Positions 7,744-26,497 of a stretch of DNA of 64,000 nucleotides are shown here, in pieces; position 1 is the stretch's first letter, and each line of letters starts with the position of its first letter. Below the pieces are notes generated by a model. The model was not told the origin of the DNA. It ran no database searches and was given only the letters and a program-made list of their open reading frames with translations. The stretch lies in IMG/VR virus record IMGVR_UViG_3300023371_000071; one strand, 5' to 3'. The position numbers and the translations under genes were made by a program. This DNA is from a virus (lineage: Duplodnaviria; Heunggongvirae; Uroviricota; Caudoviricetes).

Positions 7744-7872
7744 GGGTAGGGTGGCGAAATGGTAAACGCAGCGGTCTCCATAACTGGGGTTCGTTAGATT
7801 CCTGTCAACAGCAAACGGTCTGTAAAACCGCCGAGCTGTGCTCATGTTGGTTCAACTCCAACCCCTCCCACC
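7744..7872 (+). tRNA. tRNA-like gene with ~45-nt intervening sequence in anticodon loop (isotype unresolved: Tyr/Trp/suppressor depending on splice point)
   Basis: acceptor ggtaggg/ccctccc, 3-bp D stem, anticodon stem gcggt...accgc pairs only if ~45 nt are skipped, T arm gttgg-ttcaact-ccaac, A73, CCA. Confidence 0.4.
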
Positions 7873-7875
7873 ATA

Positions 7876-7995
7876 TGCGGATGTAGTGCAATGGCAGCAC
7901 AGGACTGACAACAAGCGAGACATGGTAATGTCTTTTACTGCAATTTCAATGTCAAGCCAAAGTCCAGATTTGGGTTCGAATCCCAACGTCCGCTC
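7876..7995 (+). tRNA. tRNA-like gene with ~54-nt intervening sequence (isotype unresolved)
   Basis: acceptor gcggatg/cgtccgc, D arm gtgc/gcac, anticodon stem ggact...agtcc split by insert, T arm ttggg-ttcgaat-cccaa. Confidence 0.35.
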
Positions 7996-8018
7996 ATTTT
8001 TCCTTTTAGGAGAACAAT

Positions 8019-8285
8019 ATGATTATCAGCAAATCTGCTCAAAAGATCATTGATCGCGCAGATAAATCTGCTGTGTTAAAGATAAACAAGGCTCTTGTTA
8101 ATATTCAGGGCAATATTGGACATATTGAGCCATTGAAACAGCTTCAAAAAGGTATGGGTAGTAATCTATATCGTTATAAGATGGAGCATTATAGAATTAT
8201 CTTTCAGCGGGTATCTGGCGAACTAATCATTAAGTCTATCACGACAAAGTCAGATACAAAACTTCGACGTACTGGTTGTAAGTAA
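8019..8285 (+). CDS. RelE/ParE-family toxin-like protein
   Basis: 88 aa; pattern ...LYRYKMEHYRIIFQR... matches RelE/ParE YRxxYRIIY core; GGAG RBS; lies between tRNAs. Confidence 0.5.
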   Translation: MIISKSAQKIIDRADKSAVLKINKALVNIQGNIGHIEPLKQLQKGMGSNLYRYKMEHYRIIFQRVSGELIIKSITTKSDTKLRRTGCK

Positions 8286-8288
8286 TAT

Positions 8289-8406
8289 GGGGAAGTAGCT
8301 CAATGGTAGAGCCCGTAAGAATGCGTGTTGCAATAGACGCTGTCAGCTATTATCAATTGTGCTGTTAACACCGTAGTTGTAGGTTCAACTCCTACCTTCC
8401 CCGCCA
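8289..8406 (+). tRNA. tRNA-like gene with ~40-nt extra internal sequence (isotype unresolved)
   Basis: perfect acceptor ggggaag/cttcccc+G+CCA, D arm gctc/gagc, T arm gtagg-ttcaact-cctac; anticodon arm could not be placed without skipping sequence. Confidence 0.35.
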
Positions 8407-8437
8407 ACAACCTTTAATTATGAAAGGAGCAATAGGC

Positions 8438-9577
8438 ATGATGAATGTTGTAAATTCTGGAAGCCGATTCCAGATTTATGGCGAAGATGTCAAGACTTAT
8501 CGTCATCTGCCGGTCGGCTCATATGAGGTAGAGTTCCATAAGATGATTGGATTCTACCTCACTTCTCGCTCTGATCTTGTGGTCAACGAGAAGATTTATG
8601 GCGACCATGCATCTCGTGCGGATAAGGTCATGAACTCTTACGCCCACTCCGACCGTAATTTCGGCATTATTCTGTCTGGACAGAAGGGTATCGGCAAGTC
8701 TTTGTTTGTCCGCATTCTCGCTAATAAAGCTCTTGAAAAGGGCATGCCTGTAATTGTCGTATCTTCTTATACGCCGGGCATTGCTGGATTCATTAGCTCT
8801 ATTCAGCAAGAGTGTCTGGTGATTTTCGACGAGTTCGAAAAGACTTTTGCCAAGACAGATGACTGGGATCCTCAGACTGAAATGCTGAGTCTGTTCGACG
8901 GTCTTGATGGCGGTAATAAGCTGTTCGCTGTTACTTGTAATGATACGAGTAGCCTGAGTAGCTATATGCTCAATCGTCCCGGTCGATTCCACTATCACAT
9001 TAAGATTACTAATCCCACTGATGCGGAAATCGTTGAGTATATGCAGGATAAGCTCGACAAGAAGTATCATGGAGTAATCGAGCAGGTTGTCAATTTCTCT
9101 CATGGTGTTAACATGACCTATGATTTTCTGCGTGCAATCGCTTTCGAACTAAATCAAGGATACTCTCTTAAGGAAACCCTGCGTGATCTCAACATTACCG
9201 ATGCTGAGTCTATGAAGTTCGATCTTACTCTGGTTCTCAATAATGGCATGAAGTTCTACTGCTATGGTCATACCATGGATCTGACCAGTAAGAATATGTG
9301 CTGGGCCTGGGTGCAGGGTAGTTTTTCCAACGGAGAAAAGCATGCGTCTAAGCGCTACTCTGTACAGTGGCGTCCTAGTGACATTATTGTCAAGGATGGT
9401 CAGCTGTGCCTGAAGCCGGAACATATCAATGTTGATCTCGATGAAGAGGAACTGTGGGAAATGAACGATGATGAAGAGAAGCAGGCCAAGGAAGAGTTTA
9501 AGAAGATCGCTCCTGTTGGCATGTTCTTCGAAAAGGTTCAGACTCTCGCAAATGGCGCTCGCTTTATTGACGTGTGA
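8438..9577 (+). CDS. AAA+ family ATPase
   Basis: Walker A GQKGIGKS, Walker B VIFDEFE; AAAGGAG RBS 8 nt before ATG 8438. Confidence 0.6.
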   Translation: MMNVVNSGSRFQIYGEDVKTYRHLPVGSYEVEFHKMIGFYLTSRSDLVVNEKIYGDHASRADKVMNSYAHSDRNFGIILSGQKGIGKSLFVRILANKALEKGMPVIVVSSYTPGIAGFISSIQQECLVIFDEFEKTFAKTDDWDPQTEMLSLFDGLDGGNKLFAVTCNDTSSLSSYMLNRPGRFHYHIKITNPTDAEIVEYMQDKLDKKYHGVIEQVVNFSHGVNMTYDFLRAIAFELNQGYSLKETLRDLNITDAESMKFDLTLVLNNGMKFYCYGHTMDLTSKNMCWAWVQGSFSNGEKHASKRYSVQWRPSDIIVKDGQLCLKPEHINVDLDEEELWEMNDDEEKQAKEEFKKIAPVGMFFEKVQTLANGARFIDV

Positions 9578-9602
9578 TAATGGGGTCTTTATGACCCCTT
9601 TT

Positions 9603-9679
9603 GGGCCCTTAGCGCAGTTGGTTAGAGCACCCGGCTCATAACCGGTCGGTCCAGAGTTCGAATCTCTGAGGGCCCACCA
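9603..9679 (+). tRNA. tRNA-Met(CAU)
   Basis: hand-folded cloverleaf: acceptor gggccct/agggccc, anticodon loop ctcataa, T loop ttcgaat, CCA encoded. Confidence 0.8.
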
Positions 9680-24593: not shown

Positions 24594-24600
24594 TATGCAA

Positions 24601-24662
24601 CGCCTGTATTTGAATGCAGGCGTTGACTTTTATAAAAAATTTTGCTATAATAATTATAGGAA
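24601..24662 (+). promoter_or_regulatory. terminator hairpin plus promoter variant
   Basis: cgcctgtatttgaatgcaggcg hairpin then ttgacttttataaaaaattttgctataataattatagg. Confidence 0.5.
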
Positions 24663-24683
24663 AATTGAAAGGGAGGCTGTTAT

Positions 24684-24965
24684 ATGGAACAGAATACCGT
24701 TATTCATGATAGAGCTTATACCCGTAGAATGAACTGGCGTAAAGCAATTCGTAAGCGTAAGATTGTGCGTCAATATGGTTATGACTTCTATGACAACCTT
24801 CACCAATATTCTAAAAACAAAATTCATTGTTCCTGCCCGATGTGTAAAGGCAATGCTGATTGGGGTCTTTATACTAATTCCGAAGGGCGTTTAAAAGTTT
24901 CTGATCGTCGTAAAATTAGAGCAATGAATGAACAGTTCAGCGAAATTGAAGCTGAAGCTGAATAA
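24684..24965 (+). CDS. hypothetical basic Cys-containing protein
   Basis: AAAGGGAGG RBS; 93 aa. Confidence 0.5.
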   Translation: MEQNTVIHDRAYTRRMNWRKAIRKRKIVRQYGYDFYDNLHQYSKNKIHCSCPMCKGNADWGLYTNSEGRLKVSDRRKIRAMNEQFSEIEAEAE

Positions 24966-24992
24966 ACAATAGAGAAAAAGGAGAATCGCTTA

Positions 24993-25883
24993 ATGAATGC
25001 TAAATTTAATTTACCTGATTTTATTGCAGGTCGAGGTGTATACACTGCTCTCATTGAGTTAAAAGAACAGGCTCCTGATTTTTGGCGTCCCAATACAGAA
25101 ATTGCATGTGTATATGGTAATTTTCCAAGTTGTATTTGGAATGGTGGCGGCCTTAATGTGTCTGGATCTTGGAACCGTAGAGACATTACAGCTTTAATTG
25201 AGTTTTATAATTATACCTTGCGTATTCCGTTGCGTTTTACATTCACCAATCCTTTGATTGATGAGCGTCATTTGCATGATTGTTATGCAAATATGATCGC
25301 AGAATGTGGTCACAATGGAATGAATGAAATCTTAACCTCTTCCACCATTTTGGAAAAGTATCTTCGTGAAAAGTATCCTAATTATAAGTATTGTCGTAGT
25401 ATTATTGGTGCGCGCGACTCTGCTATTGATCTTTCTGATAAGTATTATTTAACTGTATGCCAGCGTCGTATGAATAACAATTGGGACTTTTTGGAAACTA
25501 TTCCTGAAGAACATCGTCATAAAGTTGAATTCCTGTGCACCGATCCTTGTCCTGACAATTGTCCACGGTTATATACTCATTATCGTGATTTTGCACGTGC
25601 TCAAATTGAATATCTACCCGGCACTCCAGAATGTGCTTGCTCTATGAATGAAGTTAAAGGTACTTTTTCTCATAAATATCTACACAGTCTTGAAACTTAT
25701 ATTTCTCGTGATAAGATTGATGCAGAATATTTGCCTCGCGGATTTAATCAGTTCAAAATTTCTGGACGTGGATCTCCTATGGGCGGTATTATGGGTACTT
25801 TGAATTATATGGTTAATCCCGAATATCGTGATGATGCATTAAGTATTTTTGTAAGTTCTGCTTATGGTAGCGAACCGGTATAA
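24993..25883 (+). CDS. hypothetical protein
   Basis: AAAAGGAGAA RBS; 296 aa. Confidence 0.5.
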   Translation: MNAKFNLPDFIAGRGVYTALIELKEQAPDFWRPNTEIACVYGNFPSCIWNGGGLNVSGSWNRRDITALIEFYNYTLRIPLRFTFTNPLIDERHLHDCYANMIAECGHNGMNEILTSSTILEKYLREKYPNYKYCRSIIGARDSAIDLSDKYYLTVCQRRMNNNWDFLETIPEEHRHKVEFLCTDPCPDNCPRLYTHYRDFARAQIEYLPGTPECACSMNEVKGTFSHKYLHSLETYISRDKIDAEYLPRGFNQFKISGRGSPMGGIMGTLNYMVNPEYRDDALSIFVSSAYGSEPV

Positions 25884-25884
25884 T

Positions 25885-25935
25885 TTGACTTTTGAAAAAA
25901 TTTTTGTTATAATATATATGTAAGGTTGAGAGACC
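25885..25935 (+). promoter_or_regulatory. phage promoter cassette copy (drives ~490-nt leader, then tRNA-Val and metK)
   Basis: ttgacttttgaaaaaatttttgttataatatatatgtaaggttgagagacc. Confidence 0.55.
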
Positions 25936-26421
25936 TGCATCCCCTTCATTTGATTGTTTAGCCATTTCAACTTATAAAGAAATGGCCCTATATCCAAGAA
26001 CTGAGGTAAATGACTCAAATCTTGGTCCTTTACGCAATCGGGGCGGTTTATTTTCAGCAATCTATTTAATAGTAATAAAGATGATATTTTACAAATGAAA
26101 TTGATTGTAAATAAAGCACCGGCAATTCGCCTTGCGGAGTCGCCCCTCGCAAGAAAGAACCTCGCGCAAGGCGAGAGCCGGAAGAGTCACGCAGCAAAGC
26201 CTTTATTGGTATTATGATTTTATTCAAGAAATAAAATATTTTACTAAAATATAGGAATTGCTTATCCGCAACTGGATGAAGTTTTAAATGTAGACTCTTG
26301 CATTTGCGACATTTTTAACAGGTTACGGAATAGCAATTCTCCCTTTTCTTTCTCTGTTCTTTCTTCCTTTCCTTTCTGTTGTGCGTTCATAGGGGCATCC
26401 TACACAGAGGGTGCCCTACGT

Positions 26422-26497
26422 GCGGGGTTAGCTCAGCTGGGAGAGCATCTGCCTTACAAGCAGAGGGTCGGCGGTTCGAGCCCGTCACTCCGCACCA
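26422..26497 (+). tRNA. tRNA-Val(UAC)
   Basis: acceptor gcggggt/actccgc, D gctc/gagc, anticodon arm tctgc-cttacaa-gcaga, T arm ggcgg-ttcgagc-ccgtc, CCA. Confidence 0.75.

Follow-up and report, generated by a model that had tools for sequence, protein, structure and literature searches.

How does a phage obtain a working tRNA from a gene whose anticodon loop is interrupted by an open reading frame (ORF) and little else? The question is raised by a 64,000-nt stretch of DNA (the window) from IMG/VR record IMGVR_UViG_3300023371_000071, a virus of the Caudoviricetes, which carries a tRNA island at positions 7,744-26,497. Two genes of this island, tRNA-Asn(GTT) and tRNA-Thr(TGT), are split by insertions of 468 and 475 nt that encode an endonuclease and show no detectable ribozyme. 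A first-pass annotation, made from the letters of the stretch, had read the island as a set of ~40 tRNA genes that makes translation of the phage largely independent of host tRNA, and had treated the interrupted genes as a footnote. As a whole that interpretation is partly supported, and the interrupted genes are the unusual part of the island.

Endonuclease-only insertions at position 36/37 of tRNA genes

Both insertions lie between positions 36 and 37 of the tRNA and are almost filled by a single ORF (Table 1), leaving non-coding sequence of only 22 nt (5′) and 14 nt (3′) in the Asn gene and of 25 and 6 nt in the Thr gene. The two encoded proteins are 42% identical to each other and match Pfam family PF11645 (PDDEXK_5), with E values of 4e-30 for the Asn ORF and 2e-31 for the Thr ORF (105 and 109 bits, with the curated threshold at 26.1); the PHROGs database lists this endonuclease family as "unknown function". 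The best match of the endonuclease in the PDB is 2OST (I-Ssp6803I), with an E value of 1.7e-7. Residues E15, D40, Q53, and K55 are invariant in nine of nine diverse PDDEXK_5 members, and they would map onto the catalytic residues reported for I-Ssp6803I (Zhao et al, 2007). ARAGORN mislabels the split Asn gene as tRNA-Asp(GTC) with an intron at 35/36, a candidate that was ruled out because intact orthologs and an intron-less allele in the related strain L225 place the junction exactly at 36/37.

Comparison with close relatives fixes the junctions and points to mobility. The closest relative contig has a syntenic island in which tRNA-Asn(GUU) is intact and tRNA-Pro(UGG) is split, the reverse of the arrangement in the window, and alignment of these orthologs gives the junctions CTGTT/.../AA and TTTGG/.../GA, both corresponding to 36/37. 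Strain L225, which has the same gene order at 87-95% identity, lacks positions 13673-14140 exactly to the nucleotide. Mobile elements have colonised the island, and this precise presence/absence polymorphism is an indirect sign of what would be site-specific DNA cleavage and homing by the endonucleases.

The same arrangement was found in 34 IMG/VR loci with the ORF as query and then in at least 179 with a protein alignment as query, and 80 of the 179 loci from the alignment search were kept for analysis. Loci were anchored by tRNA-intrinsic features only, with the acceptor stem left unused. In nearly all well-resolved loci the ORF lies inside a split tRNA. The insertions are 455-490 nt long, apart from a few of ~800 nt with a larger ORF; those of 463-490 nt contain ORFs of 139-150 aa, and the flanking RNA of the endonuclease-only class amounts to at most 45 nt. 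Insertion is invariably after position 36. The occupied tRNAs, of at least eight species, include those of Asn, Lys, Thr, Ile, Ala, Val, and Pro, and the endonuclease ORFs diverge to 38-60% protein identity. A cultured phage with a complete genome, Enterococcus phage EFP01 (NC_047796.1), has the same intron in tRNA-Asn (split gene at ~105,240-105,780) and a 3-kb tRNA cluster at ~105,240-108,660; its RefSeq feature table annotates no tRNA over 130 kb including this cluster, and the split tRNA-Asn is thus missed, as these split tRNAs are by standard annotation. Phages My1 and HSTV-4 each have a free-standing PDDEXK_5 homolog next to a tRNA gene. A search for miniature versions of the Asn-class intron lacking the ORF (pattern CTGACCTTA-N0-30-TAAGCTGATGT) gave 18 matches, which were rejected because all lie within an unrelated protein-coding gene. 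Beside endonuclease-split tRNAs in other phage contigs we noted a ROOL RNA, a twister-P1 ribozyme (just sub-threshold), an OLE-like match, and a tmRNA (L070 1-321, L114 178-239, L089 936-1023, and L088 1-320).

No Rfam ribozyme (group I or group II) match was found inside positions 13673-14140 or 23750-24224 at E ≤ 5, and no Rfam ribozyme match was found in 20 diverse related insertions at E ≤ 1; the same Rfam search detected the group I intron of tRNA-Leu(TAA) in the window at 47.4 bits. The boundary rules of group I introns are broken across the class. Where a terminal U would be expected, the 5′ exons of Ala-TGC and Val-TAC have a C and that of Pro-TGG has a G. In place of the omega-G, the final intron base is a C for the Asn class and an A for the Lys, Thr, Ala, and Val classes. 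A group I ribozyme takes roughly at least 200 nt of non-coding RNA, and the insertions in the window fall short of this size. Judged from their sequence, the 468- and 475-nt insertions are without a detectable ribozyme and would not be classed as group I introns by core, boundary, or size.

The tRNAs themselves appear to be maintained. Over 35 distinct split tRNAs, the acceptor stem forms 98.4% of its pairs across the insertion, compared with 46.8% when partners are shuffled (maximum 60.8%), and all 35 acceptor stems differ in sequence. Identity elements agree with the anticodon of the 5′ exon, with C1-G72 and G37 in Pro, G3.U70 in Ala, and G73 for GUU. Because the acceptor stems are paired to this extent across the insertion, the split tRNA genes are under continued selection and predicted to be functional.

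A conserved RNA architecture surrounds the junctions. In a gapless alignment of 36 sequences, the anticodon (positions 34-36) and intron positions +1 to +6 pair with intron positions -1 to -9. Pairing holds in 88.6% of the cells of this helix but falls to 36-44% once the partner strand is shifted by 1-3 columns; double changes occur at nine of nine pairs, and the covariation score is 0.94 versus 0.24, with 0.94 reached in none of 500 shuffles. The last three intron bases follow the anticodon of the occupied tRNA (GTT/AGC, TTT/AAA, TTG/CAA, GAT/ATC, and TGT/ATA). In the Asn class, a conserved CUGA/UGAUG loop separates a helix of 6-7 bp from a short helix spanning the stop codon, which covaries (TAA with CCTTA, TGA with CCTCA); in the window these elements are a GTTTAC/GTAAGC helix that includes the anticodon, the CUGA/UGAUG internal loop, and a CTCA/TGAG helix that includes the stop codon. 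By hand reading, this loop is a candidate kink-turn: it can form G.A, A.G, U.U, and C-G pairs as in box C/D, with a bulge of 2 nt opposite 1 where a kink-turn has one of 3 nt. In the Thr-type class, a 10-bp helix (95% paired) is separated by a conserved A/CA loop from a second helix of 6 bp (90.5% paired, with double changes at five of six pairs); the Thr intron of the window has the 10-bp helix with the anticodon, the A/CA internal loop, and a CTCAG/CTGAG helix. The anticodon stem is thereby extended into a near-continuous duplex of ~22 bp (5+1+10+6 bp). The predicted splice sites lie on opposite strands of it, 3 bp apart, and the anticodon would remain as a 3-nt 3′ overhang. A bulge-helix-bulge reading of the junctions was ruled out, as the splice sites are within a continuous covarying helix.

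Candidate routes for removal of the insertions

Because the split tRNAs appear functional and no ribozyme was found, we favour protein-dependent removal, in which the insertion would be excised from the transcript by proteins and the two halves then ligated. To this explanation, taken whole, we assign a probability of roughly 0.6. Cleavage of the anticodon-intron helix on both strands, at sites 3 bp apart, would fall to an endonuclease, the candidates being host RNase III, the intron-encoded enzyme, or another phage nuclease, and an RNA ligase would reseal the anticodon loop. In the window the sealing could be carried out by an Rnl-type ligase with end-healing phosphoesterases, next to which the RlaP and cREC_REC proteins are also candidates for the joining step (Table 1), and in EFP01 by RtcB (gp162; E 3e-59), which is encoded there together with three phosphoesterases. 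Homologs of the window ligase are labelled "RNA ligase" in many phages, including Lak megaphages, which bear tRNA introns that have been called enigmatic. No EndA/Sen domain was found among the window ORFs scanned with Pfam and PHROGs (64 kb of genome). Spliced tRNA-Asn would carry the junction pattern GCGGCTGTT/AACCGCAG together with the phage acceptor stem GCCCCGT.

Several points weigh against this explanation. It is drawn from sequence. A compact or ORF-embedded ribozyme outside Rfam may be present, and the helix could instead serve, for example, translation control of the endonuclease. Large phages commonly carry RNA ligases and repair enzymes that serve in tRNA repair, and those seen here may be unrelated to the introns. 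Ligase and intron share only two IMG/VR contigs, a count that says little because contigs are fragments and the search reached close relatives only. RtcB joins cyclic-phosphate and 5′-OH ends and Rnl-type ligases join 3′-OH and 5′-phosphate ends; one cleavage chemistry suits both phages only if healing enzymes participate. In addition, the 2-nt overhangs left by RNase III, one of the candidate nucleases, differ from the predicted 3-nt stagger.

Excision by host RNase III, with the 22-bp helix as its substrate as in bacterial 23S rRNA intervening sequences and with a phage ligase resealing the tRNA, is a possible but unlikely alternative. The near-continuous 5+1+10+6 bp duplex with small internal loops suits this enzyme, and its 5′-phosphate and 3′-OH products would be direct substrates of the ATP-dependent ligase in the window. 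However, the 3-bp stagger that conflicts with a 2-nt 3′ overhang is fixed by intron-less alleles, RtcB of EFP01 is unable to join 3′-OH and 5′-phosphate ends, and the first helix of the Asn class extends for only 6-7 bp before the internal loop.

A tiny self-splicing or self-cleaving ribozyme, formed by the conserved intron ends or by RNA embedded in the ORF and perhaps leaving cyclic-phosphate ends to be sealed by RtcB, is quite improbable. Each class does have a conserved loop next to the splice sites (CUGA/UGAUG for Asn, A/CA for Thr), RtcB is present in EFP01 and cyclic-phosphate-related proteins in the window, and a twister ribozyme adjoins one such locus. However, there were zero matches to Rfam ribozymes, the internal loops differ between the two classes, just ~36-45 nt are non-coding, and ORFs that have diverged to 38-60% identity leave scant room for a conserved embedded fold.

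It is similarly doubtful that the intron-encoded PD-(D/E)XK homing endonuclease doubles as the splicing endonuclease in a ribozyme-free phage tRNA-splicing pathway. The anticodon-intron helix would then resemble the DNA target of the enzyme over its left half and centre, the phage ligase would reseal the loop, and the same enzyme could cut the identical tRNA-Asn genes of the host, with the phage copy shielded by its insertion. The enzyme may match the 3-nt stagger, but only if I-Ssp6803I leaves 3-nt 3′ overhangs around the anticodon. Its 5′-phosphate and 3′-OH ends would not be joinable by RtcB, which counts against it as the splicing enzyme. The PD-(D/E)XK fold superfamily includes tRNA-splicing endonucleases such as EndA (PMC3424549).

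The insertions might also inactivate their tRNAs, leaving recent pseudogenes, with the endonuclease kept on as selfish DNA or for attack on intact targets. Intact copies of the same tRNA core in the host chromosome and in related phages may make the phage's own copy dispensable, a free-standing homolog lies beside a tRNA gene in My1 and HSTV-4, and two other elements of the island (the Gly-like gene W2 and the element at 24341) look decayed. Against this, acceptor pairing is kept across 460-800 nt in 35 tRNAs with every stem different, identity elements are kept, at least eight tRNA species show covariation between the intron ends and the anticodon, and Asn and Thr-UGU are supplied here solely by split genes, which makes inactivation very improbable. 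That the island is a codon-supply device only, an ordinary large-phage tRNA array with incidental interruptions, is extremely unlikely. Arrays of 30 to 67 tRNAs are known in huge phages, with up to 67 per genome reported by Al-Shayeb et al (2020) and up to 35 in Lak phages, and the anticodons suit the NNT-rich codon usage. Such a reading accounts for the intact tRNAs and does not conflict with protein-dependent removal of the insertions, but it is contradicted as a complete account by the six interrupted genes, the intron architecture conserved over at least 179 loci, and the adjacent RNA-repair cluster.

To our knowledge, the bacterial and phage tRNA introns characterised so far are all self-splicing ribozymes, and tRNA splicing by proteins has been regarded as archaeal and eukaryotic. 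According to a review, all phage introns known by 2014 lay in protein genes (PMC3984707). A literature search found no description of endonuclease-only tRNA insertions, which are widespread and apparently an undescribed variant of the mobile tRNA intron. In Synechocystis PCC 6803, a group I intron of 655 nt contains a homologous gene, with an ORF of 150 aa (PMC1995217). This intron of tRNA-fMet, which encodes I-Ssp6803I, shares with the insertions described here the endonuclease family PF11645, an anticodon-loop location, and mobility. In contrast to its group I ribozyme, the present class measures 463-490 nt in total with at most 45 nt non-coding, has no ribozyme signature, breaks the 5′-U and omega-G rules, and has ends that pair with the anticodon. 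Lak megaphages, with up to 35 tRNAs (bioRxiv 10.1101/356790), have short tRNA introns that were described as "enigmatic" with no mechanism given (Devoto et al, 2019; bioRxiv 10.1101/356790). Like the present system, they include short insertions (in Tyr-GTA, Thr-TGT, Gly, and Phe), some with predicted tRNA-like folds, are strain-variable, and occur with the same ligase family; unlike it, they were reported as ORF-less, and the endonuclease-only class, the 36/37 site, and the anticodon-intron helix are not described there.

The archaeal and eukaryotic tRNA introns (EndA/Sen, with RtcB or Trl1) also lack a ribozyme, have anticodon-intron pairing and cuts on opposite strands, and are ligated by RtcB or by heal-and-seal enzymes; the archaeal ones can carry homing endonucleases. 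Their canonical site is 37/38 and they are cut in 3-nt bulges flanking a 4-bp helix, whereas the class described here has a 36/37 site, a continuous helix with 3 bp between the predicted cuts, bacterial hosts, and no EndA homolog found. Group I introns at 35/36 of tRNA-Asn and tRNA-Asp were described in Patescibacteria in 2026 (PMC13011429). There too a bacterial tRNA-Asn is missed by standard tools owing to an odd anticodon-loop site, but those introns are self-splicing ribozymes, mostly without endonuclease genes. Free-standing phage homing endonucleases such as SegB of T4/T6 (PMC13096335) are likewise associated with phage tRNA clusters, but they lie between genes and interrupt no tRNA, hence pose no splicing problem. 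Either phages or their hosts own an enzymatic tRNA-splicing route, or a new minimal ribozyme exists. If ribozyme-free splicing of phage tRNAs is true, viruses of bacteria would have their own equivalent of the tRNA splicing known in archaea and eukaryotes. The class offers a testable handle on the megaphage tRNA introns called enigmatic in 2019, with Enterococcus phage EFP01 and its RtcB as a tractable system.

The tRNA complement, amber codons, and host

With default settings, ARAGORN found 33 intact tRNAs at 9603-26497, all on the + strand. Rfam gave 36 tRNA matches in the window at its gathering score, with three abnormally long matches (7745-7870, 7877-7994, and 8289-8403) and one partial match (24359-24423). 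When introns were allowed, ARAGORN added genes at 13637-14180, 15539-15844, and 23714-24264, and hand reading added two degenerate tRNA-like elements at ~12685-12757 and ~13152-13228. The total of ~42 tRNA elements (33 intact, six interrupted, and three atypical) agrees with the ~40 genes claimed, 35 canonical and ~5 odd. The intact genes are Met (three), Thr CGT/GGT, Glu CTC/TTC, Asp (two), Ser GCT/GGA/TGA, Ile, and Tyr; Leu AAG/TAG/CAA, Trp, Gln CTG/TTG, Arg TCT/ACG, Cys, and the CTA suppressor; and Gly TCC/GCC, Phe, Ala, Lys CTT/TTT, Pro, His, and Val. The three CAU tRNAs, the four Ser-type tRNAs including the CUA suppressor, and the coverage of all 20 amino acids that had been claimed are present, and the four to five Leu genes proved to be four (AAG, TAG, CAA, and the intron-bearing TAA). 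Asn is represented solely via two interrupted genes, and Thr-UGU by the split gene only.

The anticodon set can read every sense codon, CGG perhaps excepted (24 of 13,866 codons), and matches the NNT-rich codon usage of the phage. The island supplies tRNAs for almost complete decoding, together with a Ser-like amber suppressor, in a genome where TAG appears to be read as sense. The claim that translation is largely independent of host tRNA is a statement of capacity, and charging requires host synthetases. Arrays of ~40 tRNAs are already known from huge phages, and the 33 intact and six interrupted genes on one strand, together with phage-type replication genes and IMG/VR relatives, place the island among the large-phage tRNA arrays.

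TAG appears to be a sense codon in this phage. Of the 53 + strand ORFs, 34 stop at TAA, 19 at TGA, and none at TAG. Read-through of the in-frame TAG in the E1/ThiF-like gene, which bears out an earlier claim of an E1-like enzyme, restores an N-terminal GxGxxG Rossmann motif and raises the ThiF score from 47.8 bits (profile positions 49-225) to 90.9 bits (4-225), and the GIY-YIG domain of a second ORF spans two of its five in-frame TAGs. The codon is predicted to be read by the CUA tRNA of the island, whose long variable arm and G73 suggest a Ser-like identity and which is conserved in relatives L155, L225, L007, and L011. Code 15 phages, in which TAG is reassigned to Gln, similarly have a suppressor tRNA, in-frame TAG, and a standard-code host (Borges et al, bioRxiv 10.1101/2021.08.26.457843), but the suppressor in the window is Ser-type rather than Gln-type.

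Over positions 8-65, the Asn exons, once joined, match the tRNA-Asn of Lachnoanaerobaculum and Johnsonella (L261, L254, and L242) at every base, and only the acceptor stem differs between the phage and Lachnospiraceae tRNA-Asn, with the differences fully compensated. The host is likely an oral Lachnospiraceae bacterium and, given the match to the Lachnospiraceae tested, its chromosome would carry intact copies of the presumed endonuclease target. Megablast of the tRNA block against cultured phages gave tRNA-sized matches only, and thus no cultured close relative.

Other interrupted tRNA genes and the surrounding sequence

Table 1 Features of the tRNA island and its surroundings, in window coordinates.
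Feature	Positions	Strand	Basis or detail
Promoter cassette TTGAAAA-N5-AAAAAATTTGATATAAT (-35 box, extended -10 box)	7680-7708	+	just 5′ of the first tRNAs
tRNA-Tyr(GTA)-type, long variable arm, encoded CCA, 44-nt insertion	7745-7873	+	Rfam 40.9 bits; alignment to intact Tyr genes
Gly(GCC)-like tRNA (W2), 54-nt anticodon-loop insertion	7877-7995	+	Rfam 46.9 bits; alignment to Gly genes
RelE/ParE-like toxin ORF	8019-8285	+	Pfam ParE_toxin E 8e-4; PHROG 1213 "RelE-like toxin" E 6e-8
tRNA-Asn(GTT), 43-nt insertion (8316-8358)	8289-8406	+	Rfam 47.1 bits; alignment to intact Asn genes
tRNA array, 33 uninterrupted genes	9603-26497	+	ARAGORN; Rfam tRNA scores 44-74 bits
Other cassette copies in or near the block	11851-11879, 12213-12241, 13067-13095, 20004-20032, 22388-22416	+	motif search
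tRNA-like element	12685-12757	+	acceptor stem GGGGATA/TGTCTCC (G3.U70), T arm, ACCA
Glu(CTC)-like cloverleaf, degenerate T arm	13152-13228	+	hand reading
tRNA-Asn(GTT) 5′ exon, positions 1-36	13637-13672	+	ortholog alignment; intron-less allele L225
468-nt insertion, site 36/37 of Asn	13673-14140	+	PDDEXK_5 ORF 13695-14126 (143 aa)
tRNA-Asn(GTT) 3′ exon, positions 37-76 including CCA	14141-14180	+	ortholog alignment; L225
tRNA-Leu(TAA) with 218-nt group I intron (15574-15791)	15539-15844	+	ARAGORN -i; Rfam Intron_gpI
Amber suppressor tRNA, anticodon CTA	19471-19561	+	long variable arm, G73; ARAGORN
cREC_REC protein ("cyclic-phosphate processing receiver" domain)	20065-20379	+	Pfam PF20274 E 1e-19
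E1/ThiF-like gene, in-frame TAG 21376-21378	21244-21954	+	Pfam ThiF
tRNA-Thr(TGT) 5′ exon, positions 1-36	23714-23749	+	ARAGORN with introns
475-nt insertion, site 36/37 of Thr	23750-24224	+	PDDEXK_5 ORF 23775-24218 (147 aa)
tRNA-Thr(TGT) 3′ exon including CCA	24225-24264	+	acceptor stem 7/7 paired
Atypical tRNA-like gene	24341-24428	+	Rfam 45.9 bits over model positions 5-66; fold and hand reading
DUF2828/DUF7788 protein (PHROG 850, "RNA-binding protein")	28687-30201	+	start of RNA-repair-like cluster
Major vault protein homolog, 823 aa (MVP shoulder domain and vault repeat)	30779-33250	+	Pfam E 1e-21
RlaP "RNA repair pathway" nucleotidyltransferase	33543-34388	+	Pfam/PHROG
Calcineurin-like phosphoesterase, first	34388-35197	+	Pfam/PHROG
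ATP-dependent RNA ligase (PF09414 and PHA02142 OB fold)	36881-38323	+	Pfam
Calcineurin-like phosphoesterase, second	40099-40944	+	Pfam
319-codon ORF, five in-frame TAG, C-terminal GIY-YIG domain	55439-56398	+	Pfam GIY-YIG E 3.9e-10

The insertion in tRNA-Leu(TAA) is a classical group I intron. It lies at the canonical 34/35 site, with a U at the end of the 5′ exon and an omega-G (junction CTT/...G/AAAA, aligned with an intact ortholog), and its Rfam Intron_gpI match is full length (E 2e-9), with the 47.4 bits just missing the gathering score of 50. Strain L225 lacks this intron to the nucleotide.

The three insertions of 43-54 nt at 7745-8406 are a separate kind from the endonuclease-bearing ones. 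In the Tyr(GTA)-type gene the insertion is on the 5′ side of the anticodon stem or in the loop, and a flanking CGGTCT direct repeat gives seven equivalent insertion positions when deletions are enumerated. This gene is identical in strain variant L037, which is too similar to define the boundaries of the short insertions. The short insertion in Asn(GTT) falls between positions 28 and 29, in the anticodon stem, with a single excision solution. For the Gly-like gene W2, no excision yields a normal anticodon loop (its 3′ part, AAGCCAA, has no U33), and the gene has possibly decayed. In the atypical gene at 24341, a 14-nt hairpin (24345-24358) breaks the 5′ acceptor strand, and without it the strand reads TGTTAAG, complementary to CTTAACA. 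Position 33 is an A in the anticodon loop of this gene, CATTGAT. The element at 12685 is without a normal anticodon arm and has only a weak Rfam tRNA-Sec match (E 2), and the Glu(CTC)-like cloverleaf, picked up by neither ARAGORN nor Rfam, is probably a pseudogene.

Some short tRNA introns in relatives are nested tRNA-like minihelices (L016 2581-2702, L031 2382-2530, and L034 3116-3236), consisting of a stem of 7 bp, a hairpin resembling a T arm (loop TGCAATT or TTCAACT), and then N-CCA. When exactly the minihelix is cut out, L031 yields a sensible Glu-UUC with a Glu-like body, L016 a CUA suppressor whose body is Gln-like, and L034 Ile-UAU. The structure suggests that these introns are processed by RNase P and 3′-end enzymes. 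TGCAAT and TGTCA(A/G)C motifs recur within the short insertions of the window.

The island is transcribed from repeated sigma-70-type promoter cassettes. The 29-nt cassette has 12 matches in the window, all on the + strand, where none is expected (100 shuffles), and six of the 12 are inside or at the edge of the tRNA block, as the description of cassettes distributed through it had anticipated. Among the embedded protein genes, the RelE-like toxin that had been proposed was confirmed by its PHROG match and sits amid the short-insertion tRNAs, and the cREC_REC gene is also located within the island. The proposed GT8 glycosyltransferases are present as two paralogs, of which one passes Pfam and the other is recognised by 35% identity to the first; the GT8-paralog ORF at 17088-17792 (region 17070-17793) is precisely missing in L225 and is a strain-variable insertion. 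A proposed HPr-like protein found no support in Pfam at E ≤ 1 or in a PDB sequence search. Directly 3′ of the three short-insertion tRNAs lies a P-loop ATPase (8420-9577; PHROG 2376, E 4e-104) with a faint Clp1 match (E 0.007); an RNA 5′-kinase role would suit a heal-and-seal pathway, and the match covers the P-loop alone. No IMG/VR relatives of the neighbouring AAA protein were found.

The RNA-repair-like neighbourhood at 28687-44425 also contains an SPFH/flotillin protein, and the vault-protein homolog encoded there is unusual in a phage. Other genes in the window encode gyrase, DnaB, DNA ligase, FTHFS, and SAM synthetase. Between the tRNA-like relics, ~870 nt without ORFs (12757-13630) are GC-rich and apparently structured, hold the cassette at 13067, and could represent one or two non-coding RNAs; no convincing Rfam family was found in the ORF-free stretch 12680-13630. 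A match to YrlA (Y RNA-like) at 22865-22983 was not accepted, at 30.6 bits against a gathering score of 69, and a Ro/TROVE-like protein is encoded near this stretch.

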